Source: Escherichia coli
GTDB lineage: Bacteria; Pseudomonadota; Gammaproteobacteria; Enterobacterales; Enterobacteriaceae
Assembly: GCF_003334815.1 (NCBI RefSeq)
Contig: NZ_QOWO01000002.1
DNA length: 64,000 nt
Strand: one strand, 5' to 3'
Shown: positions 2,010 to 42,117 of the stretch, piece after piece
Layout of the letters: each line of letters begins with the position of its first letter
Position numbering within the stretch: the stretch's first letter is position 1
The notes under the pieces: model-generated
The model's input: the letters and a program-made list of their open reading frames with translations, nothing else
The model's database searches: none
What the model was told of the DNA's origin: nothing
Position numbers and translations under genes: made by a program

Positions 2010-3250
2010 CAGGGTTTTACCCCCGTGTTTTCAGTTTCTACCCGATCCTGCGTTTCCATTGTCGGTTGTGCGGGCGGATCAACCTGCGCCAGACGTGGCG
2101 TGTGTGCCGGAAGCCAGCCAACCAGCGCCGGGAAGTGGCGTAAAAAGTGGAACGCCAGCACGCTTTTGGTCAGGTTCCACCAGGTGCGTTTGGGCAGCAT
2201 GGTTTCATCCACCTGCTGACAATCTGCGGCAATAATGCCGTTCAGATTATCGCGCAGCGTCTGGTTAAAATGACGATCGTGGATGATGACATTTGCTTCG
2301 AGATTCAGTGACAAACTGAGCGGATCGAGATTACTGGACCCTACTGTCGCCCAGTGATCGTCCATCAATGCCACTTTGCCGTGGAGCGGGCGGCGGCGGT
2401 ACTCAAAAACCTGAACGCCGCCTTTAACCAGATAGTTATACAGCAAGCGCGCACCGACTCTGACAATCGGCATATCCGGTTCGCCCTGAATGATCAGTTT
2501 GATCCGCACCCCGCGCCGTGCCGCTTTACGCAAGGCGTGTAAAAATCGATAGCCGGGGAAGAAGTAGGCGTTGGCGATAATCACTTCCCGCCGCGCCTGA
2601 GTGAGCATTTTCAAATAATGGCGTTCAATATCATCGCGATGTTCTTCGTTATCGCGCCAGACCAGCAATACCTGCGCTTCTCCCGGCTGGCGGTTCTCTT
2701 CCGCTTTGTGATGACGTCGCCACCAGCGTCGTGCCGCGCTCTGTCCAGGCAGGTTTTCCAGCTCAAACTGGAGAATATCTTCGACAATCGGCCCTTCAAG
2801 GCGTACCGCGTAATCCTGTTTAGCCTCTGGACCGTAGCTGGACATATGCTCGGCGGAGTAATTCAGCCCGCCAATAAAGGCTATACGCGCGTCGATCACC
2901 ACAATTTTGCGATGCATCCGGCGAAACACATTGGTGCGCATACCAAAAAGGCGAGGGCGGGGATCGTAGTAGCGGAACACTACGCCAGCTGCCGTCAGTT
3001 CATTGACAAACTCATCGCTGAGATCCGGCGAACCGTAGCCATCCAGCAAGACTTCCGCTTTAACCCCGCGTTGCGCTGCTGCCAGTAGTGCCGCATGCAG
3101 TTGTTTGCCGACGTCATCCTCAAACCAGATAAACGTTTCAAGAATGATGCGTTCTTGTGCCTCGCCAATCGCCTTAAACACCGCGGGATAATATTGCTCG
3201 CCGTTTTCCAGCAACTGGATCTTATTGCCTTCGCGCCAGCTACATTTCAT
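2009..3250 (-). CDS. clsB: Cardiolipin synthase B (phospholipase D superfamily)
   Basis: ORF track 413 aa; two HKD motifs readable (HRKIVVID...; HGKVALMDD...SSNLD). Confidence 0.9.
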
Positions 3251-4008
3251 AAATGAATCTCCGCACTTAAAGGGGCATGATCAGAAAGGTGTCGCCATGT
3301 CCGCAGCGGCAACGCGGTTGGCGCGCTGGCGCTGGCATTTTTGACGTAGATCCTGTCCAGTCGTAGTAGAGGAAATTGCACCGGAAACGTGCGCGCCGGG
3401 CGTCCGTGGGCGCGGGTAAAAATCTCATCCAGTCCGGCCTGCACTTTTAACGGATGATTAGCTTTTTGCCGCCAGTCATTGAAATCACCCGCCACCAATA
3501 CCGGTTCGCCGTCCGGTAGCTCATTCACCCATTCGGCGAGCATCGCAAGCTGCGCCTGACGGTGCGCCTCACGCAGGCCCAGATGTACGCACATCACATG
3601 AATCGCTTTTCCGGTCATCGGCGGCACAATGCGGCAGTAGAGCACGCCGCGCTTTTCCGCACCATCGACCGAAACATCGCGATTCTCATAATGTTCAATG
3701 GGATAACGCGACAGTACGGCGTTGCCGTGATGCCCTTCCGGGTATACGGCATTGCGACCGTAGGCAAAATCGCTCCACATAGTGTCGGCGAGAAACTCGT
3801 AGTGCGAGGTATCGGGCCAGTTTTCCACATGCAGCGGATGAACTTCGTGCGCGCCCATCACTTCCTGCAGGCAAACAATATCGGCGCTGACGGTACGCAC
3901 GGCGTCGCGAAGTTCCGGCAAAATGAAGCGTCGGTTAAACGCGGTAAAGCCTTTGTGAATATTGATGGTGAGCACCTTGAACGAAAATTGTTGTGTTTGA
4001 TCGGGCAT
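3247..4008 (-). CDS. ybhP: Endonuclease/exonuclease/phosphatase-family protein YbhP
   Basis: ORF track 253 aa; stop overlaps clsB start; first gene of ybhP-clsB-ybhN unit. Confidence 0.85.
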
Positions 4009-11747: not shown

Positions 11748-11799
11748 TCTTTTATGCCGGGCTATGCCCGGCATCAGGCTGATGAACAAACGCAAAACT

Positions 11800-11900
<101 letters not shown>

Positions 11901-11978
11901 TCACAACAAGCACTTGTCAGCAATTTGAGAACACGGGAAAAAATTTATCTGTTTTACCGCCCATAAGCCACCGAGACG

Positions 11979-17054: not shown

Positions 17055-17172
17055 ACGTAGCGTAAACGCCTGATCCGTCCAACGGTTCGGATTTTGTAGG
17101 CCTGATAAGACGCGGTAGCGTCGCATCAGGCATCTGTTGCCGGATGCGGCGTAAACGCCTTATCCGTCCTAC
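17055..17172. repeat. REP (repetitive extragenic palindrome) cluster between hcxB and ybiJ
   Basis: Repeated GCCTGAT...CGCATCAGGC and TGCCGGATGCGGCGTAAACGCCTTATCCG units. Confidence 0.8.
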
Positions 17173-17436: not shown

Positions 17437-17700
17437 AATTAATCTCTCGCAGGTGATTTTTGTATAAGTGACGTTGTTTCGTCGATGTGATGAGTATCAC
17501 GTTTTTTTACGAGAGATAAAATCGAAGAGAATTGACCGCCTTGTTCAAATAAATTGATTGATATCTAACCTACTGATAAACCATTTATTTGTTGTACTTA
17601 TGAACTTGTTTTATACCGCGTGGCAGTCACAGCAGCGTTAAAGGCACGGAATGACACGCAAAATACAAATTATACTCGCTATGCATCTCGCCAGTTGTAG

Positions 17701-24991: not shown

Positions 24992-25140
24992 GACTCCTCC
25001 AGTGAGAAAATAGAGCAAAAAGATAAGTATAGATGCTGGAGGAGGGGCGATTTTAAATGAGAGGAATCTGGTGTGCCTCCCTTTCGGGTGAAAGGGAGGA
25101 AGGGATATTAAGCAGGTTGCTGACAACGTGCGGGCTTTTT

Positions 25141-25243
25141 TGCCGGATGCGGCGTGAACGCCTTATCCGTCCTACAAGTTCATGCAATTTTAATAAGTTG
25201 CCAGATATCCTGTAGGCCTGATAAGCGTAGCGCATCAGGCAAT
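25141..25243. repeat. REP pair between glnQ and ybiO
   Basis: TGCCGGATGCGGCGTGAACGCCTTATCCGTCCTACA ... TGTAGGCCTGATAAGCGTAGCGCATCAGGCA. Confidence 0.8.
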
Positions 25244-30491: not shown

Positions 30492-30526
30492 AAAAAATCC
30501 GCCTCTCGGGGCGGATTTTTGTTTTT
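30492..30526. terminator. Bidirectional intrinsic terminator between convergent ompX and opgE
   Basis: AAAAAATCCGCC-TCTCG-GGGCGGATTTTTGTTTTT: GC hairpin flanked by A-tract and T-tract. Confidence 0.85.
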
Positions 30527-32108
30527 AAGGTTTCGGGTCGAAAATATCGGTTCCGAGATGGTTGTAATCCACCTTCTGTAACTGGAAGTTGGTGATGTAT
30601 ATCGGCCCGGCTTTCTTCTCAGATATAAACGGGTATTTGATGTTAATTTCCTTCGCTTTAATCCCCGTCCACTGGGAGAAAAAGCCTAAGAAGTCATTGG
30701 CTGAGCGGCGGGCTTTAATCACACGATGCGCTTTATCGTCGCTGGAAATGACCATAAAAGGCACCTGGAAATTTTGCTGATATTTATCATCATGGGCAAG
30801 GTATTGCACGTCTTTACCGCGCTCTTTAAAGGCCAGACCGTGGTCAGAAAAGTAAACCAGCGAGAAGCTGCTGCCGCTGTTGCGTAACTGATCGTACAGC
30901 TTGCGCAGTAAATCGTCCGTTTGCGTCATGGTATAGAGATAGCACGACGTTTCTTTCGATTGCACAAAGGTTTCGTATTTTCCTTGTGTCCTGTCGCAGG
31001 CCTGCGGATGTGAGCCCATCAGATGTAGAACAATCAGCTGCGGTTGCGAGTGCTCTTGCGCCAGCACTTGAGCGGTCATATCCAGTAACGCTTCGTCTTT
31101 GGTGTTTTTATCTGCTTCAAAATTACCTTCTTTCAGGAAGTACACTTCATCTGCTCGTTTGGCGATGCTGGCGATAGCGGTATCGTATTCGCCGATTTGA
31201 CCCTGGTTGGAAAACCACCAGGTCTGGAAGCCCGCGCGATTTGCCAGGGTGACAAAGTTATCCTGAAACTGTGGTTTGCCATCGACAACGCGATTGAGCG
31301 TTAAGCCAAGCGATTTCTGCGTGGAGCCACTGGCGGCAATGTAGTCAGCAAATATCAAACCGTTAACGCTGCTGGCAAACGGGGTATTGTCCCAGTGACC
31401 GCCAAAGGCACCGAGGGCATCGCGACGCGCGCTTTCACCGATCACCACCACATAGGTCTGATACTTCGGCTTAACGGCAGTGACCGTCCAGGTATCTTTC
31501 ATTCCGGAAAGTTTTGCCATCCGTTCTTGCTCTTCAATCACCTCGTTATTATTGACGATGACATCCTTAGCAAAACGAAATACCGGATAGCCAGTATCTT
31601 TCAGTTTAAATACGCCACCCCAGGCCAGGTTTTGCACGGGAGCAACAAAAAATGTCGCCACACTGAATACCAGACACAGGCTGTCGAAGGTATTCCAGCG
31701 CGCTTTTTCATTCTCTTTTTTTCGCCTGATTGCTATTACGCCGAGCGCAAAAATAAATAAGCCGACCAGGTAGCTGTACCACGGAAAAATCGTCAGGATT
31801 TCGGTCGACTCTTCCATATTGGTGGAGTGCAATGCCAGCAATGTATTGAAATTAGGCGCGCCGTAGGCCTGAGCAAAAGGGAAATAACAAGCCGCCACCA
31901 GCGAACTGACACCGACCAGAACTTTTTGTACGCGAGGCAATGTTCGCCATAGCAAAAGCAAAATAGCCGTAAACGCAGCGGTGTAGAGCAAACTGAAGGG
32001 GTAACCTAAGCCGAGGTTAATTAATAGCGACTGTAAAAAGTAGAACGCAGTCCACGGGCTAAATACCCGGCTACGGGTAACAAGCGATTCTTTGAGGGTT
32101 AAATTCAT
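30525..32108 (-). CDS. opgE: Phosphoethanolamine transferase for osmoregulated periplasmic glucans OpgE (YbiP)
   Basis: ORF track 527 aa; N-terminal TM helices plus sulfatase-like periplasmic domain. Confidence 0.9.
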   Translation of the reverse strand: MNLTLKESLVTRSRVFSPWTAFYFLQSLLINLGLGYPFSLLYTAAFTAILLLLWRTLPRVQKVLVGVSSLVAACYFPFAQAYGAPNFNTLLALHSTNMEESTEILTIFPWYSYLVGLFIFALGVIAIRRKKENEKARWNTFDSLCLVFSVATFFVAPVQNLAWGGVFKLKDTGYPVFRFAKDVIVNNNEVIEEQERMAKLSGMKDTWTVTAVKPKYQTYVVVIGESARRDALGAFGGHWDNTPFASSVNGLIFADYIAASGSTQKSLGLTLNRVVDGKPQFQDNFVTLANRAGFQTWWFSNQGQIGEYDTAIASIAKRADEVYFLKEGNFEADKNTKDEALLDMTAQVLAQEHSQPQLIVLHLMGSHPQACDRTQGKYETFVQSKETSCYLYTMTQTDDLLRKLYDQLRNSGSSFSLVYFSDHGLAFKERGKDVQYLAHDDKYQQNFQVPFMVISSDDKAHRVIKARRSANDFLGFFSQWTGIKAKEINIKYPFISEKKAGPIYITNFQLQKVDYNHLGTDIFDPKP

Positions 32109-32379
32109 ATGCCACTATCGTAACAAACGCCATGTGCTTACCCTGGCGTCAAGGGTCAATACCTGCAAGAGTGCGTGAAGAGTGGAAAGGGGTCCGCATC
32201 CGCGAGCCGCAATATACGCAGGGCTGCAAGAAGATAGAGCGAGCCGCCGTTCAGGTCAACTACTGACGAACAAATCTTTTGCGAAGGGGATTGCAAATCC
32301 GACAAAAAGTGGGGTTTTTCAGACCAAAACGCGTTATGCCTGCATGAAAGCAGGAGTGAAGCGGCGTACCGCGACGCCG

Positions 32380-32508
32380 CTATTTATCGGAAGGTTTATC
32401 TTGCTGCGGTTTGTTGTTGACCATATCGCACAACATAGAGAGCAGCATTAACCGTACTTTAAAGGGAGAATGACTAAACACGCGCATACACCTCTTGAAC
32501 TCATTCAT
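32380..32508 (-). CDS. mntS: Small protein MntS (42 aa), manganese homeostasis; corresponds to rybA transcript
   Basis: Not in ORF track; manual reverse-strand translation gives MNEFKRCMRVFSHSPFKVRLMLLSMLCDMVNNKPQQDKPSDK*; MntR-type palindromes upstream. Confidence 0.85.
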   Translation of the reverse strand: MNEFKRCMRVFSHSPFKVRLMLLSMLCDMVNNKPQQDKPSDK

Positions 32509-32566
32509 AAGACCTCCTGACTTGCTAATCCCGTCGATCCTTGAGGGATGATTGCATTACATACAG

Positions 32567-32598
32567 ATATAGCACAGGCTATATTATATAGCTATTGC
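32567..32598 (-). promoter_or_regulatory. MntR operator(s) in mntS promoter
   Basis: ATATAGCACAGGCTATATTATATAGCTATTGC: ATAGC...GCTAT palindromes between divergent mntS and mntR. Confidence 0.65.
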
Positions 32599-32693
32599 TA
32601 AAACGTTAATTTTTTGTACCTTCGCAACTCTGGTTTACAATGTGCGCACGAAATGAGAACGCTATGTATGCGTCACCATAATGAGGAAGCACA

Positions 32694-33161
32694 ATGAGTC
32701 GTCGCGCAGGTACGCCAACAGCAAAAAAAGTGACGCAGTTAGTGAACGTGGAAGAGCACGTTGAAGGGTTCCGCCAGGTCAGAGAGGCGCATCGGCGCGA
32801 GCTTATTGATGATTACGTTGAGCTGATTTCTGACTTGATCAGGGAAGTGGGGGAAGCTCGTCAGGTGGACATGGCTGCTCGTCTGGGAGTTTCGCAACCG
32901 ACGGTGGCTAAAATGCTTAAGCGGCTGGCAACCATGGGGCTGATTGAAATGATCCCCTGGCGTGGCGTGTTTTTAACGGCAGAAGGAGAGAAGCTGGCGC
33001 AGGAAAGCCGCGAGCGACATCAGATAGTCGAAAATTTCTTGTTGGTGTTGGGCGTCAGTCCGGAAATCGCCCGTCGCGACGCGGAAGGCATGGAGCACCA
33101 TGTTAGTGAAGAGACGCTCGACGCTTTTCGTTTGTTTACCCAGAAACACGGTGCCAAATGA
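32694..33161 (+). CDS. mntR: Manganese-responsive transcriptional regulator MntR (DtxR family)
   Basis: ORF track 155 aa; stop overlaps ybiR start. Confidence 0.95.
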
Positions 33162-34276
33162 GCCTGCCTTTTTTACGCACGCTGCAAGGCGATCGTTTTT
33201 TTCAGTTATTAATTCTTGTTGGTATCGGATTAAGCTTTTTCGTGCCCTTTGCACCGAAATCCTGGCCTGCTGCTATCGACTGGCACACCATCATCACCTT
33301 AAGCGGCCTGATGCTGCTGACCAAAGGTGTGGAGTTAAGCGGTTATTTTGATGTGCTGGGGCGCAAAATGGTGCGCCGCTTTGCTACGGAGCGTCGGCTG
33401 GCGATGTTTATGGTGCTGGCGGCGGCGCTGCTTTCTACCTTTCTGACCAACGATGTCGCGCTGTTTATTGTTGTTCCGCTGACTATCACGCTAAAAAGAC
33501 TGTGTGAGATCCCGGTTAATCGGCTGATTATTTTTGAGGCGCTGGCAGTCAACGCTGGTTCGCTACTGACGCCAATTGGCAACCCGCAAAATATTCTTAT
33601 CTGGGGACGTTCTGGTCTTTCGTTTGCCGGATTTATTGCCCAAATGGCACCGCTGGCTGGCGCAATGATGCTGACGCTCCTGCTCCTGTGCTGGTGTTGT
33701 TTCCCTGGAAAGGCGATGCAATACCATACGGGGGTGCAAACACCGGAGTGGAAACCGCGGCTGGTGTGGAGTTGTCTGGGGCTGTATATCGTCTTTCTGA
33801 CGGCGCTGGAGTTCAAACAAGAGCTGTGGGGACTGGTGATTGTGGCGGCAGGCTTTGCGCTGCTGGCACGTCGCGTGGTGCTCAGTGTGGACTGGACGCT
33901 GCTGCTGGTGTTTATGGCGATGTTTATCGACGTCCATTTACTGACCCAGCTTCCAGCGTTGCAAGGCGTGTTGGGTAACGTGAGTCATCTATCTGAACCC
34001 GGGTTATGGTTAACGGCAATCGGTTTATCGCAGGTGATCAGTAACGTGCCGAGTACCATATTGTTGCTGAACTATGTGCCGCCGTCTTTATTACTGGTAT
34101 GGGCGGTAAACGTAGGTGGCTTTGGGTTATTACCCGGATCGCTGGCAAATTTGATTGCGCTACGTATGGCGAACGATCGCCGCATCTGGTGGCGTTTCCA
34201 TCTCTATTCAATACCGATGCTGTTGTGGGCGGCGTTGGTGGGATATGTTTTGTTAGTTATACTCCCGGCCAACTAG
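33158..34276 (+). CDS. ybiR: ArsB/NhaD-superfamily anion permease YbiR
   Basis: ORF track 372 aa; polytopic membrane protein; translationally coupled to mntR. Confidence 0.85.
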
Positions 34277-34287
34277 GGTCTGGCAAA

Positions 34288-34322
34288 TAAAAAAGGCGGA
34301 TTATGAGTCCGCCTTTTGCTTT
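34288..34322. terminator. Bidirectional intrinsic terminator between convergent ybiR and ldtB
   Basis: AAAAAAGGCGGA-TTATGAG-TCCGCCTTTTGCTTT. Confidence 0.85.
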
Positions 34323-34334
34323 AAGTTTTGAAGA

Positions 34335-35255
34335 TTAATTCAGACGAACCGGCATCCCGGAGCGGTTTTTAATCGCTTCATCAAGAACAACCTGATCAAC
34401 ATCTGGCTGACCGGTCACTGTCTGCACGCTCTTCGTCAGGGTAATTGGCACAATTTCCTGACCTTCAAACTGGGCTTCGGTGGTAGACAGCGGGTTATGG
34501 ACTTCAATATAACGGCTGCCGTCTGGCTCGGTGGTCGCTTTTACCGGCTCATCAATAAACTGTACGCGGGTACCGACCGGTACTTTCTCGAACAGGAATT
34601 TGATGTCTTCGTTACGCAGACGCACACAACCATGACTTACACGCAGGCCGATACCGAAGTTGGCGTTGGTGCCATGGATAGCATACAGGCGACCGATATA
34701 GAGTGCATACAGCCCCATCGGGTTATCCGGACCTGCCGGAACGACAGCCGGAAGCGGTTCGCCCGCAGCGCGGTACTCTGCGTGCATTTTGGCGGTCGGC
34801 GTCCAGGTCGGGCCTGCTTTTTTACGCTCAACTTTGGTGGTCCAGTTGATAGGCGTATCTTTGCCTAACTGACCAATGCCGATCGGCAGCACGATAACGG
34901 TGTTGGTCCCTTTCGGATAGTAATAAAGACGCATCTCAGCACTGTTAATGACGATGCCTTCATGAACGGTATCCGGCAGGATCAGCTGCTGCGGAATGTT
35001 CAGTACAGTACCGCCTTTCGGCAGGAAGGTATCCACACCCGGGTTCGCTTCCATCATATTGGAAAGCCCCATCTGGTACTCGGCGGCAAAATACTCCAGC
35101 GGCTGAGTGTTACCTTCAGGAATGGTGATCACCTGATTCTGACCAACCAGGCGACTCCCGTCGGTTGGCAGAGGATAAGTTACCGCAGAGGCGGTACTGC
35201 AAAAGCCGACAACAGCGAAGGCCGCTGCGAATAATGTTTTCAATTTCATATTCAT
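34335..35255 (-). CDS. ldtB: L,D-transpeptidase LdtB (YbiS), links Lpp to peptidoglycan
   Basis: ORF track 306 aa; signal peptide; YkuD catalytic motif (SHGCVRL). Confidence 0.9.
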
Positions 35256-35473
35256 GTTAAGCGAGATTTTGTGCCTGGCAGGCCATTGGGTTGAGAATAT
35301 TAGAGTATTGGAAGCGCATTATAAGTTCATTCCAGCTCACAGTGAAATCAGATGTGTACGAAATCACATTTTTTGCCTTTGGCTTGAGTGTAGACCTTAA
35401 GCGAGGAGCAGGATCTTCTTTCAGACTTATGGCATAATGCGCGGTTTGTCATATCTCTTTTCAGGATACGCCT

Positions 35474-37066
35474 GTGTTAGTTTCCAGTAACGTCACCATG
35501 CAGTTCGGCAGTAAGCCGTTGTTTGAAAACATTTCCGTCAAATTTGGCGGCGGCAACCGTTACGGCCTGATTGGCGCGAACGGTAGTGGTAAATCCACCT
35601 TTATGAAGATCCTCGGCGGCGACCTTGAGCCGACGCTGGGTAACGTTTCCCTCGATCCCAACGAGCGCATTGGTAAACTGCGTCAGGATCAGTTTGCCTT
35701 TGAAGAGTTCACTGTGCTGGATACGGTGATCATGGGGCATAAAGAGTTGTGGGAAGTGAAGCAGGAGCGCGACCGCATCTATGCTTTGCCGGAAATGAGT
35801 GAAGAAGACGGCTATAAAGTGGCCGATCTGGAAGTTAAATACGGCGAAATGGACGGTTACTCTGCGGAAGCTCGCGCCGGTGAACTGTTGCTTGGCGTGG
35901 GAATTCCAGTGGAACAGCACTACGGCCCGATGAGTGAAGTTGCTCCTGGCTGGAAGCTGCGTGTGCTTCTGGCGCAGGCGCTGTTTGCTGATCCGGATAT
36001 TCTCCTGCTCGACGAACCGACCAACAACCTCGACATCGACACCATTCGCTGGCTGGAACAGGTGCTGAACGAGCGTGACAGCACCATGATCATCATCTCG
36101 CACGACCGTCACTTCCTTAACATGGTCTGTACCCACATGGCGGATCTGGATTACGGCGAGCTGCGCGTTTATCCGGGTAACTACGATGAGTACATGACGG
36201 CGGCGACCCAGGCGCGTGAACGTCTGCTGGCCGATAACGCCAAGAAGAAAGCGCAGATTGCTGAGTTGCAATCTTTCGTTAGCCGCTTTAGCGCCAACGC
36301 CTCGAAATCTCGCCAGGCAACTTCGCGCGCGCGCCAGATTGATAAAATCAAACTGGAAGAGGTGAAAGCCTCCAGCCGTCAGAACCCGTTCATCCGTTTT
36401 GAACAGGATAAGAAACTGTTCCGTAACGCGCTGGAAGTGGAAGGTCTGACCAAAGGGTTTGATAACGGTCCGCTGTTTAAAAATCTCAACCTGCTGCTGG
36501 AAGTGGGTGAAAAACTGGCGGTACTGGGTACCAACGGCGTCGGTAAATCAACGCTGCTGAAAACGCTGGTGGGCGATCTGCAACCGGACAGCGGCACCGT
36601 AAAATGGTCTGAGAACGCGCGCATTGGTTACTATGCTCAGGACCACGAATATGAGTTTGAAAATGATCTGACCGTGTTCGAATGGATGAGCCAGTGGAAG
36701 CAGGAAGGCGATGACGAGCAGGCGGTACGCAGTATTCTCGGTCGTTTGCTGTTCAGCCAGGACGACATCAAAAAGCCAGCTAAAGTGCTTTCCGGTGGGG
36801 AAAAAGGGCGGATGCTGTTTGGTAAGTTAATGATGCAGAAGCCGAACATTCTGATCATGGACGAACCGACCAACCACCTGGATATGGAATCCATTGAGTC
36901 GCTGAACATGGCACTGGAACTGTATCAGGGCACGCTGATCTTTGTTTCACACGACCGTGAGTTCGTAAGCTCCCTGGCGACCCGCATTCTGGAAATCACC
37001 CCGGAACGCGTGATCGACTTTAGCGGTAATTACGAAGATTACCTGCGTAGTAAAGGGATCGAGTAA
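35474..37066 (+). CDS. ybiT: ABC-F family ATPase YbiT (two NBDs, no TM domain)
   Basis: ORF track 530 aa, GTG start; Walker A twice ([18 protein letters not shown]), two signature motifs, inter-domain linker. Confidence 0.9.
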
Positions 37067-37126
37067 GTGATTATCCGTCACCCCGATACTGTCGGGGTGA
37101 CGGCGGCTGATGACAAATGCAAAATA

Positions 37127-37227
37127 GCCTGATGCGCTACGCTTATCAGGCCTACGCAGTACCTGCAATATATTGAATCTGCAGGACTTTGTAGGCCGGA
37201 TAAGGCGTTAACGCCGCATCAGGCATT
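37127..37227. repeat. RIP/BIME-type element downstream of ybiT (direct-repeat partner of 11800-11900)
   Basis: Same REP-IHF-REP arrangement, same orientation as the rhlE copy. Confidence 0.8.
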
Positions 37228-37306
37228 AACAAAGCGCATTTGTCAGCAATCTGAGTAACGTCGAATCGATTTTCTTAATCCCACATCAATTCACTTCCAT
37301 TAATTC

Positions 37307-38572
37307 TCAAACATCCATGCCCAACGCTCGCTTACCGTGAATGTTGAGGTCGGCAAGCGTAAAGCGTCCTTCCCAGTTTGTTTCATAGTCCTCGCGCGGG
37401 AAGTCGCCCGGCGATGCGCCTTTTTCCAGTGCGGCCTTCACCTTGTGCGCGTAGGCAAGATTTTTCTCGCACATCGGTGCCGCAGGAATGTACATCACGT
37501 TGCCCCAACCTTGTTGATTTTCAACGGGGGCAACGGAATGGATGACGTCGCAGTGCCACCAGACGGAGTCTCCGGCTTCGAGTTTTGGAATGCTGGTTAA
37601 CGCCTCAATCAACAGTGGATGCCATTGCTCTGATACCGGCAATACTCTTCCGGGCGCTACGCCGCACAGTTCATCCTCCGGCACATCATCAAGCAGCGGA
37701 CGTAACAGTACGTACGCCATAGCTTCAGGAATGGGCACGACGTGCAGCAGCCCCTGACCAGGCAGCATATCAGAGAGCGCTGTCCAGCCCTGGAATGTCC
37801 GAAACACGGAACATTTGGTGGTGTTGTCCACCGTGTACTCTTCAACTTCCGTACGATGTGCCGCATGCCAGGGATCATATTGCGCCAGATTGCCATTAAA
37901 GACGTTGGCGAAAACGCGCTGATACGCTGGAAGCAGCCAGCGTTCCAGTGCCCCGGAGTCGGTATGCGCTCCAAGACCTTTGGAGGTCGTTCCGGGCGGA
38001 CGGCGGCGGATACGGTCAGGGTAGATGACGCTCACATCCGGGTTAAACCATTGCTTTCCATCACTTTCAAATGTCCACAGACGATTGAGAAACGACTGCG
38101 CATTCGCCATTTCTTCACTCTGGCGGGCCTGCATTTGCGCCTGCGACCAGTAGATGGGGTAAATCTCGGGACGTGAAGCGCTGAGCGTCCCGAAGAAATT
38201 ATCGCCGGGGCCTTTGTAGACCTCGTCAAAGCGGTTGCGGTCCAGATAGTCCAGCATCGACTGATCCCAGCCTAGCGCTTGTTCGCGGGGGAAATGGCCT
38301 TTTATCACCGCACAACCGCGACGTTTAATCTGTTCGCGCTGCTCTGCAGTAACATGACCTGCTTTGATATCGGCATAAGACAGCACCGGCCAGACGGCAT
38401 CGCCCTGTGCTTTGAGTGCGTTGATTTCAGCCACTCGCGTGGCAATGTCATCGCTTAGCTGATTAAAGATCTGCTGGACGTCGCCAAGCTGCGCCCGCAG
38501 CGCGTGCTTCATCTGACGGATAGCTGCTTTGTGATCGGCAGGCAATGTGTCGCTGGTAAAAGTAGAAGCCAT
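37307..38572 (-). CDS. ybiU: DUF1479 protein YbiU (possible Fe(II)/2OG-oxygenase-like fold)
   Basis: ORF track 423 aa; start trimmed to MASTFTSD (421 aa); HxD motif (GAHTDSG). Confidence 0.8.
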   Translation of the reverse strand: MASTFTSDTLPADHKAAIRQMKHALRAQLGDVQQIFNQLSDDIATRVAEINALKAQGDAVWPVLSYADIKAGHVTAEQREQIKRRGCAVIKGHFPREQALGWDQSMLDYLDRNRFDEVYKGPGDNFFGTLSASRPEIYPIYWSQAQMQARQSEEMANAQSFLNRLWTFESDGKQWFNPDVSVIYPDRIRRRPPGTTSKGLGAHTDSGALERWLLPAYQRVFANVFNGNLAQYDPWHAAHRTEVEEYTVDNTTKCSVFRTFQGWTALSDMLPGQGLLHVVPIPEAMAYVLLRPLLDDVPEDELCGVAPGRVLPVSEQWHPLLIEALTSIPKLEAGDSVWWHCDVIHSVAPVENQQGWGNVMYIPAAPMCEKNLAYAHKVKAALEKGASPGDFPREDYETNWEGRFTLADLNIHGKRALGMDV

Positions 38573-38723
38573 AACCACCTCTCATTAACTTTCATTCGAA
38601 ACCATTCTGATTTGCATGTGACAATATAAGTTATAAATAAGTTAATGCAAGTTTAATGATTTGATGTGATGTACAGGATGTAAAAAGAAGGGAAAACCGG
38701 AGCGCACGGCTCCGGTAGAGAGG

Positions 38724-39539
38724 TCAGCTGTTAAAAGGGGATGTGTTATCCAGCACCGCCTGAATCACATTCAGCGCGCCTTCATGATTATTATCATCGG
38801 TAGCGTAACGGGCGATTTGTTTAATGTTTTCCGCAGCATTGCCCATCGCAAAGGAATAACGCGCCATTTTCAGCATCTCCGCATCGTTACCGCTGTCGCC
38901 AATCGCTACCACATTTTGCGGTGACAGATCCCAGCGTTTCAGTAACCGCGAAATACCGTTTGCTTTATGTAGACCGGGAATAATCAGGTCGATAAAGCCA
39001 AAACCACTGGTAACGGGTTTCATAATGCCATCGAGCGCTACGTGCAGTTTGTCGATCACTAACGGGATTTGTTCATCCGGCAGGTTGAGCGAAAACTTGA
39101 ACAGTACGTCGTCAATCTCCTGATAATCTTTTACAGGTTTCAGGCGATGGTAGTGTTTTGCCATCAGTGCGACAAATGCTTCGGGGGCATTTTCGCTGAC
39201 ATATGCACTTTGCAGACCGCAGGCGACAAAATTGAGTTGCTTATCTTTTAGCAACTCGCCAATAACAATCCGCGATTCATGTCGGGTCAGTTCGCCGTGG
39301 AACAACTGCTTGCCATGTTCGTAAACCAGTGCGCCGTTTTCCGCGACAAAAGAGATCTCATCCTTTAGCTCAGGAAAGAATGAAATAAGCTGGTAATACT
39401 GATTACCGCTGGCAACAACGAACTTAATGCCGCGCTTTTTCAGTTCCTGATATTGCGCCATAAAACGTGGTTGGTTGTACGTTTTGGCGTCGTTAAGAAA
39501 AGTACCGTCCATGTCTGTGACGATAACTTTTACGCTCAT
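38724..39539 (-). CDS. ybiV: HAD-superfamily (Cof-type) sugar phosphatase YbiV
   Basis: ORF track 271 aa; HAD motif I (VTDMDGTFL), C-terminal GDSGND. Confidence 0.9.
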
Positions 39540-39684
39540 AGGTGTGCTCCTGGCTCGAAAATGAAACCGTAACAGTGTAATAACAATGTGACGCAGAGCA
39601 CAAATTATATTTCGAATGAAAGTAAGGATGAAATTGATGATGTGAATGATTTAGCCCGGCGACGACGCCGCCGGGCCGAGGAGA

Positions 39685-42117
39685 TTACAGCATATGTTCA
39701 GTACGGGCGATGATATCGTCCTGAGCGTCTGGAGAGAGCGCGGTGAAGAACGCGGAATAGCCCGCGACACGCACTACCAGATCGCGATACTGATCGGGAT
39801 GTTTTTTCGCATCCAGCAGCGTTTCGCGGGAAACGATGTTGTACTGAATATGCCAGCCTTTATGCACTTCAAAGAAGGTACGCAGCAGGATCATCAGTTT
39901 CTGCTTGTCAGATTCGTTCTCCAGCGTTGCCGGATTCAGTTTCTGGTTGAGCAACACGCCGCCGAGAATCGCTGCCGTAGGCAGTTTACCCACTGAGCCA
40001 ATGACCGCAGTAGGGCCAAGATGGTCAGTACCGGAGGCCGGGCTTGCGCCTTCTGCCAGCGGGGTGTGGGCTTTACGCCCGTCCGGTGTTGCCATAGTCT
40101 GCGCGCCAAACGGTACGTTAGCGGAGATTGATGACGTACCCGCGTAATAGTTGCCGCCAACCGGACCACGACCGTAGCGCGGATTATGGTACTGTTTCAG
40201 TTCGTCGATATAGGTCTGATAAGCGCGAGCCAGCAGCGTATCGACAGTATCATCGTCGTTGCCGTACTTCGGCGCACCGTTAATCAGCCGCTGACGCAGC
40301 TGCTCGTGAGTCAGGCCGTCGAAGTCATCTGCCAGTGCGGCAGCAAGCTGTTGCTGACCAATCGCACCTTGTTCAAACACCAGTTTCTTCACTGCCGCCA
40401 GGCTGTTGCCGAGGTTGGCAATGCCGACCTGCAGGCCAGAAACCCAGTCATATTTCGCGCCGCCTTGCTTGATACTTTTCGCTCGCTCAATACAGTCATC
40501 CACCAGCGCCGAGCAGAGAATATCGTGCACGTTCTCTTCCAGCATGGTGTCGACGACATATTCGATTTCGATTGATTTGCGGGTGTAGTAACGGATTTGC
40601 GTATCCCACGCGTCCATCACTTCATCGAAGTTGTTGAAGTTACCTGCCGACAACGCTTTTTCTTGTGGCAGGAACACTTTGCCGCTGGTGGCATCATGCC
40701 CGCCTTCCAGCGCCGCCAGCATCACGCGGGCGAAGTTGATAAAGCTCATGCCGGTACAGCGATAGCCCCATTTGCCACCGACGGCGGTTTCTATACAACC
40801 AATCGCTGCGTAGTCATAAGCGTCCTGCGGTTCAATACCGAGTTTAATAAATTCCGGGATCACGATTTCGTCGTTGTTGAACGCCGGCATCCCGAAGCCG
40901 CAACGGATCACCTGTACGCAGGCGTCGAGGAAATCGTTGCTCATTCCTGCATGGTAACGCACGCTGAGGTTAGGCTGAGTGGAACGCAGGCGACCGCAGG
41001 ATTCGAGGATCGCGTAAGAGAGTGGATTCACCGCGTCCATTGGTTGACCATCAACCAGATTTTGCCCGCCAATAGTGACGTTCTGATACAGCGGACTTCC
41101 CGCAGAGGCTTTTGAGTGTGAGCCGGAGCGGATCTTGTTCACTTCCAGCAGTTTCAGCCAGCAGCTATGCAGCATCTCGATGGCGTGTTCGCGATCCAGC
41201 GTCTGGTTGAGTTCAACGTCGCGGCGATAGTACGGGTAGAGATACTGGTCCATACGACCAAACGATACTGAGTGACCGTTAGATTCGATCTGCAAAATCA
41301 ACTGGATGAAGTAACACAGTTGCAGCGCCTGCCAGAAAGTCTGCGGCGGCTGGTGGGCGATAAGATCGCAGTTTTCTGCCATCGCCAGCAGTTCATCGCG
41401 ACGGCTTTCGCGGGTTTCGGTCGCGGCCATTTCACGCGCCAGGGCAGCGAAACGTTCAATGTGTTCACTGACTGCCACCAGCACGATATCAATCGCTTTC
41501 AGGAATTGCTCACCGTGTAAATCTTCCAGCACCGTCAGGTTGATGCGCGAGCGACGTTCCGCTACTTTCTCGCGCAGACCATCAAGCCCTTTTTCCAGCA
41601 GCAGCGGGAAATTCACCGCCAGGTGCGCATCGCCGGAGGTCATATTGCCTTCCGCTTTAATGATTCCGGTCGCCAGCAGACCTTTTTGCTCATCGGTAAA
41701 CATGCCGTAGCAGCGATCCTGTACGGTCTGACCGCGCCACCACGGGCACACTTCATGCAGAACGCGTTTGTTCTCTTCGCTCACCGCAAAGCCAGCACCG
41801 GGACGATCTGCCAGATCATCAATCTCTTTTTCGATCCACGAGACAGTATATTCCGGGAAGATCGGCGCGGCGCGAACTTCGCTTGCCTGGTTGCCAATGA
41901 TCAACTCATCGTGTTTGATCCAGATGGTGCGATTCGCCAGGTGATGCGCCAGTGCCAGCGCGCGACGTACCGGGATCGGCTTATCGAGATGTTGTTGATA
42001 CATCTCGGTATAGTGCTGCGCGCGCTCGGTACAGACTGGCGGTTTCACAATATGCACCAGCGCATTTTTGTGCGCTTTAATGCGGTCGCTGAGCGTGTCC
42101 AGTTTCAGTGTGGTCAT
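39685..42117 (-). CDS. ybiW: Glycyl-radical enzyme YbiW (PFL-like; eliminase/dehydratase-type active site)
   Basis: ORF track 810 aa; glycyl radical motif RVAGYSAFF near C-terminus; Cys-x-Glu loop (AAIGCIETA) rather than a PFL-type CC pair. Confidence 0.9.
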   Translation of the reverse strand: MTTLKLDTLSDRIKAHKNALVHIVKPPVCTERAQHYTEMYQQHLDKPIPVRRALALAHHLANRTIWIKHDELIIGNQASEVRAAPIFPEYTVSWIEKEIDDLADRPGAGFAVSEENKRVLHEVCPWWRGQTVQDRCYGMFTDEQKGLLATGIIKAEGNMTSGDAHLAVNFPLLLEKGLDGLREKVAERRSRINLTVLEDLHGEQFLKAIDIVLVAVSEHIERFAALAREMAATETRESRRDELLAMAENCDLIAHQPPQTFWQALQLCYFIQLILQIESNGHSVSFGRMDQYLYPYYRRDVELNQTLDREHAIEMLHSCWLKLLEVNKIRSGSHSKASAGSPLYQNVTIGGQNLVDGQPMDAVNPLSYAILESCGRLRSTQPNLSVRYHAGMSNDFLDACVQVIRCGFGMPAFNNDEIVIPEFIKLGIEPQDAYDYAAIGCIETAVGGKWGYRCTGMSFINFARVMLAALEGGHDATSGKVFLPQEKALSAGNFNNFDEVMDAWDTQIRYYTRKSIEIEYVVDTMLEENVHDILCSALVDDCIERAKSIKQGGAKYDWVSGLQVGIANLGNSLAAVKKLVFEQGAIGQQQLAAALADDFDGLTHEQLRQRLINGAPKYGNDDDTVDTLLARAYQTYIDELKQYHNPRYGRGPVGGNYYAGTSSISANVPFGAQTMATPDGRKAHTPLAEGASPASGTDHLGPTAVIGSVGKLPTAAILGGVLLNQKLNPATLENESDKQKLMILLRTFFEVHKGWHIQYNIVSRETLLDAKKHPDQYRDLVVRVAGYSAFFTALSPDAQDDIIARTEHML

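Follow-up and report, generated by a model that had tools for sequence, protein, structure and literature searches.

When we analyzed the window, that is, the whole 64,000-nt stretch of Escherichia coli DNA, its list of open reading frames contained a frame of 530 aa with a GTG start at 35474..37066 on the plus strand. The initial annotation had called this frame ybiT with the same GTG start, and its coordinates were exact. The name was correct as well, since the coding sequence shows 100% identity to MG1655 b0820, and the RefSeq annotation places ybiT/b0820 at identical coordinates. Comparison of MG1655 851000-861000 with window 30511-40511 gave a single mismatch in 10,001 nt, at position 34395 within ldtB; the ybiT coding sequence and both flanking intergenic regions were base-for-base the same as in K-12 MG1655. 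The gene order ybiR, ldtB, ybiT, ybiU, ybiV is also that of K-12, and both neighbours of ybiT, ldtB and ybiU, lie on the strand opposite to it. ybiT is a syntenic core gene: of 5426 E. coli genomes, 5422 cover at least 80% of the query, and ybiT was the annotation beneath the match in the E. coli genomes listed. An antisense ORF of 264 aa at 35477..36271 on the minus strand had no NCBIfam match and lies wholly within the conserved coding frame, and it was therefore treated as a shadow ORF. ybiT is thus an already known gene: structures show its product on the ribosome, and a biochemical activity has been published for it, but the control of its expression may be new. The features of the locus are as follows.

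35353..35368, no strand assigned: CRP site TGTGTACGAAATCACA in the divergent ldtB-ybiT intergenic region
35430..35438, plus strand: putative extended -10 element TGGCATAAT for ybiT, proposed from its conservation
35463..35466, plus strand: Shine-Dalgarno sequence AGGA, 7 nt 5' of the GTG
35474..37066, plus strand: ybiT coding sequence, 530 codons from the GTG start, then a TAA stop
37075..37103, no strand assigned: hairpin with a perfect GC-rich 12-bp stem and a 5-nt loop, beginning 8 nt past the ybiT stop
37105..37259, no strand assigned: RIP / BIME-1-type repeat (REP79 of MG1655), including its conserved outer flanks
37127-37155: REP, inverted relative to its partner
37191-37225: partner REP, inverted relative to the first
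37178-37166, minus strand: predicted IHF-like core ATTCAATATATTG, with 1 mismatch to the consensus WATCAANNNNTTR

An AGGA/AAGG-like block stands at the same spacing from the start codon in most orthologue loci. The GTG is the first possible start past an in-frame TAA at 35435, and many orthologue loci carry an in-frame stop just 12-18 nt 5' of the start. A start codon was found at the equivalent position in 119 of 119 orthologue loci (GTG in 107, TTG in 6 and ATG in 6). Furthermore, the alignment of YheS with YbiT begins at residue 1, with MIVFSSLQIRRG at the alignment start. This comparative proof makes the GTG start of ybiT well supported. Two other starts were considered and rejected. Met9 (ATG, codon 9) has no Shine-Dalgarno sequence and would drop the N-terminal segment that matches YheS from position 1; it is also opposed by the conservation of residues 1-8 as coding sequence in the 119 loci. 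A start further upstream would meet the in-frame TAA, and the interval between this stop and the GTG offers just an ATC.

Across 19 aligned Enterobacteriaceae genera, TGGCATAAT was near-invariant and its flanks diverged. The element was not called by a scan for the sigma-70 -35/-10 consensus. The scan found 3 matches against 2.1 expected, the sole one on the plus strand being inside ldtB, and gave no usable ybiT promoter. The CRP site differs at 1 position from TGTGA-N6-TCACA and is conserved across genera, and exactly this sequence is the CRP ChIP-seq target 'ybiS/ybiT' of ETEC H10407 (PMC4287617). Occurrences of the CRP pattern in the window were not above chance by count (3 found, 2.0 expected), and the site was accepted because of the ChIP-seq result and the conservation, not because of the count. 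We infer that ybiT is transcribed from the conserved extended -10 beside the CRP-bound site and translated from a conserved, weak GTG.

The YbiT protein has the Pfam architecture ABC_tran / ABC_tran_Xtn / ABC_tran, with the following parts (all on the plus strand).

35525..36025, residues 18-184: ABC domain 1 (ABC_tran, E=1.6e-19), with Walker A GANGSGKS at 34-41, signature VAPGW at 156-160, and Walker B plus catalytic Glu ILLLDE at 176-181
Residues 209-211: H-loop 1, SHD, just beyond the span of ABC domain 1
36143..36400, residues 224-309: PtIM linker (ABC_tran_Xtn PF12848, model 2-85 of 85, E=3.3e-21)
36476..36874, residues 335-467: ABC domain 2 (ABC_tran, E=4.1e-25), with Walker A GTNGVGKS at 352-359, the canonical signature LSGGE at 439-443, and Walker B plus Glu ILIMDE at 459-464
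Residues 492-494: H-loop 2, SHD, just beyond the span of ABC domain 2

Two ABC domains in one chain, joined by the approximately 80-residue linker PF12848, are features of ABC-F proteins. No membrane segment was found in YbiT by Kyte-Doolittle hydropathy (top 19-residue mean 1.23; GRAVY -0.38), and no transmembrane domain is fused to it or encoded in an adjacent co-oriented gene. The two nucleotide-binding domains and the missing transmembrane domain had been proposed from the sequence before, and Pfam and hydropathy bear this out. The possibility that YbiT serves a membrane ABC transporter or an efflux pump as its ATPase subunit could be set aside almost entirely, being refuted by the structures, in which the protein is on ribosomes. 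This was reportedly the assumption of a study in Erwinia chrysanthemi, and is said to be the original annotation too. ABC_tran domains are indeed common to transporters, NCBIfam gave weak matches to ZnuC, CcmA and CydC, and the putative transporter YbiR is encoded two genes upstream. However, every transporter model scored far under its cut-off, the two domains are fused by a linker specific to ABC-F proteins in a chain without a membrane segment, and the neighbouring genes occupy other strands or belong to separate transcription units.

Within the ABC-F family, the YbiT equivalog model NF011646 (PRK15064, 'ABC-F family ATPase') covered residues 1-529 with its profile positions 1-529 of 530 and scored 1067.1 bits, compared with an NCBIfam cut-off of 762 bits. 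The chain ends 36 residues past the second H-loop without a C-terminal extension, as expected for the YbiT subfamily; the presence of a C-terminal domain separates YheS from YbiT, which has none (PMC11162784). The first ABC domain carries the degenerate signature VAPGW, which has been discussed and called characteristic of YbiT (bioRxiv 10.1101/2023.06.15.543498). In a comparison with solved structures, the next-best relatives were the paralogues YheS, Uup and EttA. The placement of the protein in the ABC-F family as a paralogue of EttA, Uup and YheS, suggested earlier, is thus borne out by the PRK15064 score and by the solved relatives. Gene identity, domain anatomy, and the start codon with its conservation are established here by sequence comparison; binding to the E site, the shift of the tRNA, the dependence on the ATPase and the specificity for charged sequences are known from published experiments on the same protein.

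After the paralogues, the next tier of solved relatives consisted of the antibiotic-resistance (ARE) proteins PoxtA, VmlR/ExpZ, MsrE and LsaA, and the generic model NF000355 ('ribosomal protection-like ABC-F family protein') scored 430.9, above its cut-off of 380. A strain that lacks the four ABC-F proteins together is also more sensitive to elongation inhibitors. YbiT might thus be an ARE-type ABC-F protein that displaces drugs at the peptidyl-transferase centre, but we regard this as very improbable and largely refuted. The specific ARE models were all far under their cut-offs (score/cut-off: Vga 296/725, Msr 286/680, OptrA 271/1450, Sal 255/725, Lsa 205/750), as were the CplR (256/780) and producer-type (265/800) models, which places YbiT outside the ARE group. 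Erythromycin sensitivity changes minimally in a single ybiT knockout, and the gene, being core and syntenic (5422 of 5426 E. coli genomes), is not on a mobile resistance element. The ARE proteins MsrE, VmlR, LsaA, VgaA, PoxtA and OptrA share with YbiT the fold, E-site binding and a PtIM-driven displacement of the P-site tRNA. They differ in that YbiT matches none of the specific ARE models and its single knockout has no resistance phenotype, and the tRNA displacement is modest for YbiT compared with the extreme one of MsrE (cryo-EM preprint).

YbiT of K-12 (b0820; PDB 9njf and five others) is the same as the window protein at every residue. The YbiT chain of the six entries (9njf, 9nl6, 9nl7, 9nlf, 9nlq and 9nls) matches the window protein except for E181Q and E464Q. 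The EQ2 mutant, with 70S complexes reported in bioRxiv 10.1101/2023.06.15.543498, has the same two substitutions, and from the sequence and the chain names the six entries appear to be the work of that preprint. ATP-dependent E-site binding has accordingly been published for exactly this protein: the preprint describes E-site binding, a PtIM-tRNA contact in which the linker touches the P-site tRNA at its acceptor stem, and hydrolytic as opposed to non-hydrolytic states. The initial annotation had YbiT bind the ribosome and named a lack of ribosome association as the outcome that would speak against it; the published structures with E181Q/E464Q chains contradict such a lack, and the experiments it proposed are already in the literature. 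The states solved were obtained with the ATPase-dead mutant, on complexes of initiation and of tRNA-Val elongation as opposed to a stall on a charged peptide, and the tRNA geometry in them is disturbed, not improved. In vitro, EQ2-YbiT blocks translation and, in a tripeptide, the formation of both peptide bonds; in vivo, it inhibits protein synthesis.

The role of YbiT had also been described as the least defined among the four paralogues. That statement is out of date, as an activity has been assigned (PMC11162784, PMC11381351): YbiT acts on poly-acidic nascent chains, which destabilise the ribosome, and on poly-basic ones, which stall it. In a reconstituted system, YbiT raised read-through of 20D, 20E, 20K and 20R, and both the linker and the ATPase were required. 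Deletion of ybiT lowered the output of GFP-20D/20E-LacZ reporters, which was complemented, and made a pth(ts) mutant worse. The authors of PMC11162784 noted that the destabilisation effects could be secondary. The single ybiT knockout has almost no growth defect, shows little change in the proteome or in erythromycin sensitivity, and leaves long stationary phase without loss of fitness.

Taken as a whole, including the mechanism, the explanation that the frame is ybiT and encodes a soluble ABC-F ATPase that helps translation elongation is very probably correct. In this explanation, YbiT binds the vacant E site of the 70S ribosome while its two ABC domains clamp ATP. The resulting pull on the attached nascent chain remodels the peptidyl-transferase centre and the tunnel entrance, and ATP hydrolysis then releases the factor, so that translocation can proceed. 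The outcome in E. coli is less premature ribosome break-up on poly-Asp/Glu and relief of stalling on poly-Lys/Arg.

Wild-type YbiT slows dipeptide formation slightly, and its overexpression slows growth slightly. In view of these effects and of the disturbed tRNA geometry, a purely 'helper' picture is incomplete. YbiT could instead be mainly regulatory or architectural, acting as an elongation brake or as a factor coupled to the exchange of bL33, a sub-stoichiometric ribosomal protein, with VAPGW setting a slow ATPase clock. The density of bL33 is missing in one major cryo-EM class, and YbiT in its non-hydrolytic conformation would clash with it. The P-site tRNA is moved off the catalytic geometry in all YbiT states, and the slower first peptide bond with the wild-type protein and the mild growth inhibition on overexpression point in the same direction. 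VAPGW is present at 156-160, and the weak GTG kept in 107 of 119 orthologues would fit a limited protein level, although close relatives may simply have inherited this codon. Against this stands the greater amount of full-length product obtained with wild-type YbiT on poly-acidic and poly-basic templates in the purified system, together with the reporter output lowered in vivo by the deletion. What connects YbiT with bL33 is a structural correlation, observed in a mutant complex. We therefore consider a mainly regulatory or architectural role improbable and retain the elongation-helper function. The window adds nothing on the native mRNAs that depend on YbiT, or on the significance of the degenerate first signature and of the bL33 link.

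Related proteins show which of these properties are shared. B. subtilis YkpA also belongs to the YbiT subfamily according to the classification in PMC6723617 and PMC11381351, and it behaves much as YbiT does: ribosomes stall mildly on reporters with poly-Lys, poly-Arg and poly-Glu when YkpA is lost. The effects in B. subtilis are weak, and poly-Asp was equally hard for all strains; the two proteins are likened here by published data. Of the paralogues with solved structures, E. coli YheS is the nearest (302.8 bits, E=4e-89, alignment of residues 1 to 524), and it binds the E site as YbiT does. It is longer, however (647 aa in PDB chain 9vvi_W, any tag included), its first signature is the less degenerate SGGW compared with APGW in YbiT, and its target is SecM arrest, not charged stretches (PMC11162784). 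EttA, with a lower similarity of 242 bits, shares with YbiT the E-site binding, the contact that the PtIM makes with P-site tRNA and relief of poly-acidic destabilisation, and an ettA deletion is partly complemented by YbiT overexpression. EttA differs in favouring correct tRNA geometry and in working at the first peptide bond and on acidic runs near the N terminus; YbiT perturbs this geometry and works mainly in mid-ORF.

Downstream of ybiT, the fold energy of the hairpin was -25 to -28 kcal/mol. On the plus strand it is flanked by GTGATTAT on the 5' side and CGGCTGAT on the 3' side. It had been called a bidirectional terminator. A strong 12-bp hairpin is present, but the call is only half right, as the stem is followed by a U-tract on neither strand (plus strand CGGCTGAT, minus strand ATAATCAC): of the features of an intrinsic bidirectional terminator, the GC-rich stem-loop was found and a U-tract per strand was not. 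A terminator scan requiring at least five T in eight did not call the hairpin; its 4 hits in the region, against 2.2 expected, were at chance level and all inside coding sequence. In E. albertii, the stem showed four compensatory double changes and zero one-sided changes, the sole unpaired cell of the covariation comparison being the terminal pair in one entry (L020). The hairpin was also retained in one E. coli-labelled genome without the RIP. A literature search for Rfam family ES036/CssrF gave unrelated papers only.

The perfect GC-rich stem between convergent genes, its maintenance in E. albertii and where the RIP is absent, and the hairpins with a T-run that follow ybiT in several other genera would agree with a true bidirectional intrinsic terminator for ybiT and convergent ybiU. 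In addition to the missing U-tracts and the negative scan, an in vitro Rho-binding region is listed for ybiU at MG1655 857669-857884 (window 37180-37395). This region, which takes in the ybiU 3' end, intergenic sequence and part of REP79, is upstream of the hairpin. Moreover, compensatory changes in a DNA palindrome can arise via template switching, without RNA selection. A true terminator is therefore unlikely in our view, and we infer that the hairpin acts as a barrier at the 3' end, and not as a classical intrinsic terminator, with the message ending there ahead of the REP pair.

It is conceivable, though rather doubtful, that the GTG, the extended -10, the CRP site and the 3' hairpin together hold YbiT in a narrow, carbon-state-dependent range. 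Such a range is proposed because excess YbiT slows growth. The hairpin would then act on translation termination or 3'-end stability, not as a classical terminator, and with its beginning 8 nt past the stop, the terminating ribosome would presumably have to open the hairpin base.

The repeat beyond the hairpin is extragenic, between the convergent ybiT and ybiU stop codons. The REP at 37127-37155 is presumably the Z1-type and that at 37191-37225 the Y-type of the BIME literature. REP79 is listed between convergent ybiT and ybiU at MG1655 857617-857714 (supplement of bioRxiv 10.64898/2026.03.23.713779). The RIP element noted earlier beside ybiT is thus real, as REP79 with inverted REPs and an IHF-like core. 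The REP adjoining ybiT also contains the exact insertion target of IS621; roughly 1,064 genomes carry the junction, which may stem from one inherited insertion or from repeated targeting. Together with the proof of the GTG, the promoter element by the CRP site and the covarying, non-canonical hairpin, this target is an addition useful for annotation quality and unsurprising. The inverted REP pair, the central IHF consensus and the extragenic, multi-copy occurrence identify a RIP / BIME-1 element. A query containing the RIP matched each E. coli genome at a median of 17 places, and two further copies lie in the window at 11777-11932 and 25113-25240, in both of which the predicted IHF-like core is conserved.

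The ORF listing of the window placed ybiT at 35474..37066 on the plus strand as a GTG-initiated frame of 530 aa, and these positions and start codon were exactly those of the initial annotation. When window positions 30511-40511 were compared with MG1655 851000-861000 of E. coli K-12, one mismatch was found in 10,001 aligned bases, at 34395 in ldtB (A in the window, G at MG1655 854884). With a single base differing, the strain is K-12-like, not necessarily MG1655. The ybiT ORF and both adjoining intergenic regions were identical to MG1655, and RefSeq annotates the equivalent interval as ybiT, b0820, confirming the gene name; the window protein is YbiT itself and not a YbiT relative. The gene order at the locus was ybiR, ldtB (-), ybiT (+), ybiU (-) and ybiV (-). 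A 2-kb query consisting of ybiT and its flanks was covered to at least 80% in 5422 of the 5426 complete E. coli genomes, and ybiT is a core gene of E. coli.

The domains (by Pfam) and motifs of the 530-residue protein were as follows.

Residues 18-184, ABC_tran domain 1 (Pfam)
Residues 34-41, Walker A of domain 1, GANGSGKS
Residues 156-160, signature of domain 1, VAPGW, degenerate
Residues 176-181, Walker B and catalytic Glu of domain 1, ILLLDE
Residues 209-211, H-loop of domain 1, SHD
Residues 224-309, ABC_tran_Xtn, the ABC-F linker family (Pfam)
Residues 335-467, ABC_tran domain 2 (Pfam)
Residues 352-359, Walker A of domain 2, GTNGVGKS
Residues 439-443, signature of domain 2, LSGGE, canonical
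Residues 459-464, Walker B and catalytic Glu of domain 2, ILIMDE
Residues 492-494, H-loop of domain 2, SHD

The two nucleotide-binding domains without a transmembrane domain described earlier were evident from the two ABC_tran matches and the low hydropathy throughout; no membrane segment was found in YbiT, the highest 19-residue Kyte-Doolittle mean being 1.23 and the GRAVY -0.38. The protein matched the NCBIfam YbiT equivalog PRK15064 over its full length (1067 bits against a cut-off of 762). It scored well under the NCBIfam cut-offs of the Uup, YheS and EttA models and of every specific antibiotic-resistance ABC-F model; the only other model passed was the generic 'ribosomal protection-like ABC-F' (431 vs 380). 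All the testable features of the family were present in YbiT.

Six PDB entries contain a 530-residue YbiT chain differing from the window protein just by E181Q and E464Q (the ATPase-dead EQ2 form). These entries and the published E-site binding bear out the placement of YbiT as a ribosome binder of the EttA/Uup/YheS type, and this binding is documented in work on the identical sequence. In 70S complexes of both initiation and elongation, ATP-locked YbiT occupied the E site; the VAPGW signature costs one hydrogen bond to the gamma-phosphate, and bL33 density is missing from one major cryo-EM class (bioRxiv 10.1101/2023.06.15.543498). A companion preprint reported that the terminal 3'-hydroxyl of the P-site tRNA is shifted by ~3 Å and that EQ2-YbiT stops luciferase from being translated and prevents either peptide bond of a tripeptide from forming, and Murina et al. 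found that ATPase-dead YbiT inhibits protein synthesis in vivo. The structures are of mutant protein on non-stalled complexes, and the geometry captured in them is inhibitory, not stimulatory. Wild-type YbiT decreased peptidyl-tRNA drop-off and increased full-length product on 20D, 20E, 20K and 20R templates, for which the linker and the ATPase were required, while deletion of ybiT lowered reporter read-through and aggravated a pth(ts) mutant (Chadani et al., PMC11162784). The effects of B. subtilis YkpA match those of YbiT but are weaker (Takada et al.). In the mechanism proposed, YbiT with ATP would enter a vacant E site, would shift the peptidyl-tRNA and its attached chain from an unproductive arrangement, and would then hydrolyse ATP and depart. 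Published single ybiT knockouts have almost no phenotype.

YbiT is already known, and its description in the initial annotation as the least defined of the four paralogues no longer holds. Among the experiments suggested there, cryo-EM of ATPase-dead YbiT (bioRxiv 10.1101/2023.06.15.543498) and the antibiotic sensitivity of a ybiT deletion (PMC11162784) have been published; published polysome profiles were just of bipA strains expressing ABCFs, and none was found for a ybiT deletion.

The GTG at 35474 was the first possible start past the in-frame TAA at 35435, with only an ATC between them, and AGGA was located 7 nt upstream of it. The ATG at codon 9 had no purine-rich block ahead. The alignment with the YheS paralogue began at YheS residue 1, with the N-terminal segment MIVFSSLQIRRG in the pair; a start at Met9 would delete this conserved segment and was rejected. 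Orthologue starts were surveyed in a single genome of each species: residues 6-18 were sought with a degenerate pattern, and the codon 15 nt upstream was read. All 119 readable loci had a start codon at the ybiT position (107 GTG, 6 TTG and 6 ATG). Because the pattern limited the sample to Enterobacterales and some of the marine Gammaproteobacteria, shared ancestry may account for part of the GTG dominance. An AGGA/AAGG-like block was found upstream in most of these loci, and many had an in-frame stop just 12-18 nt upstream. An antisense TTG ORF of 264 aa (35477-36271, minus strand) had no NCBIfam match and lay within the conserved ybiT frame, and was regarded as a shadow ORF.

An alignment of 130 nt upstream of ybiT from 19 Enterobacteriaceae genera revealed two conserved islands amid diverged sequence. 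In one, TGGCATAAT (35430-35438), about 36 nt upstream of the GTG, was nearly invariant and was followed by a conserved GTTTGTCACA; judged from its sequence, TGGCATAAT is a putative extended -10 element, from which transcription would begin near 35445. The other island, GATGTGTACGAAATCACATTTTTT, includes a CRP-type site, TGTGTACGAAATCACA (35353-35368), between the divergent ldtB and ybiT. For ETEC H10407, a table of CRP ChIP-seq targets includes exactly this TGTGTACGAAATCACA, placed between ybiS (ldtB) and ybiT (PMC4287617). Since the CRP pattern occurred in the window at chance level, the evidence for the site consists of the ChIP-seq entry and the conservation. Two other CRP-like sites with one mismatch were seen at 17486-17501 and 39587-39602. 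The CRP-like TGTGATGAGTATCACG is assigned to ybiJ in the ETEC table (PMC4287617), and TGTGACGCAGAGCACA at 39587 lies within the ybiV-ybiW intergenic gap by RefSeq coordinates.

Downstream of ybiT the following elements were located.

37075-37103, perfect 12-bp inverted repeat CCGTCACCCCGA / TCGGGGTGACGG with a 5-nt loop, 8 bases past the ybiT TAA
37127-37155, left REP
37178-37166 (-), predicted IHF-like site in the core, ATTCAATATATTG, one mismatch to the consensus
37191-37225, inverted REP

The hairpin folded as RNA with -25 to -28 kcal/mol from either strand. The sequence then runs on as CGGCTGAT on the plus strand and as ATAATCAC on the minus strand; neither side had a U-tract and the scan for terminators made no call there, so that the 'bidirectional terminator' of the initial annotation was not borne out as one of the intrinsic type. 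A barrier at the 3' end and a Rho-assisted stop are at least as likely as an intrinsic bidirectional terminator. In E. albertii, the eight differing stem positions formed four fully compensatory pairs with zero one-sided changes, and the single unpaired cell in the three-sequence stem count was the terminal pair in L020, a comparison locus from another genome. As evidence that the structure is kept in E. albertii, a comparison of three sequences is suggestive, not statistical; template switching can likewise make the two arms of a palindrome change together. The hairpin was present and the RIP repeat absent in SCPM-O-B-8794, a genome labelled E. coli, and other genera had unrelated hairpins downstream of ybiT, some with T-runs.

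The RIP element noted beside ybiT was present, as two inverted REPs around an IHF-like core, with conserved outer flanks. It is named REP79, convergent between ybiT and ybiU, in the supplement of bioRxiv 10.64898/2026.03.23.713779. The supplement also places a region bound by Rho in vitro, with NusG, at MG1655 857669-857884. This region corresponds to window 37180-37395 (-), comprising the ybiU 3' end and intergenic sequence with a 45-nt overlap with REP79. As it covers the ybiU 3' end, the ybiU side is more likely Rho-dependent. The ybiU ORF was listed at 37307-38578 (-), starting from a GTG that precedes the RefSeq start (window 38572, equivalent to MG1655 859061) by two codons, and YbiU (DUF1479) matched no NCBIfam family at E<=0.001.

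The left REP contains ATCAGGCCTAC (37145-37155), with the core CT at 37152-37153. Other E. coli genomes carried a 1277-bp IS621 (IS110 family) exactly at that CT, as at 2199-3475 of the comparison locus L002; the window has the empty site. This agrees with the known target of the IS621 bridge-RNA recombinase in REPs. A 200-nt junction query (114 nt of ybiT flank and 86 nt of IS end) was covered to at least 80% in 1064 of 5426 complete E. coli genomes. The one top match inspected had the same insertion point, with 85 bp of the IS left end duplicated.

Two further RIP-type copies were found at 11777-11932 (86% identity to the ybiT copy) and at 25113-25240 (82%, in reverse orientation). Rfam ES036 (CssrF sRNA) matched at 37148-37190 (-) and 11821-11863 (-), with 41.6 and 43.3 bits against a gathering threshold of 37.6; a literature search on the ES036/CssrF name found nothing relevant. 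As both matches were the central part of RIP copies, this 'sRNA' family seems to describe the core of a repeat element. Rfam naRNA4 (nucleoid-associated noncoding RNA 4) matched at 17099-17169 (-) with 78.4 bits against 59.5; the family is REP-derived, and the match probably marks another REP cluster near ybiJ.
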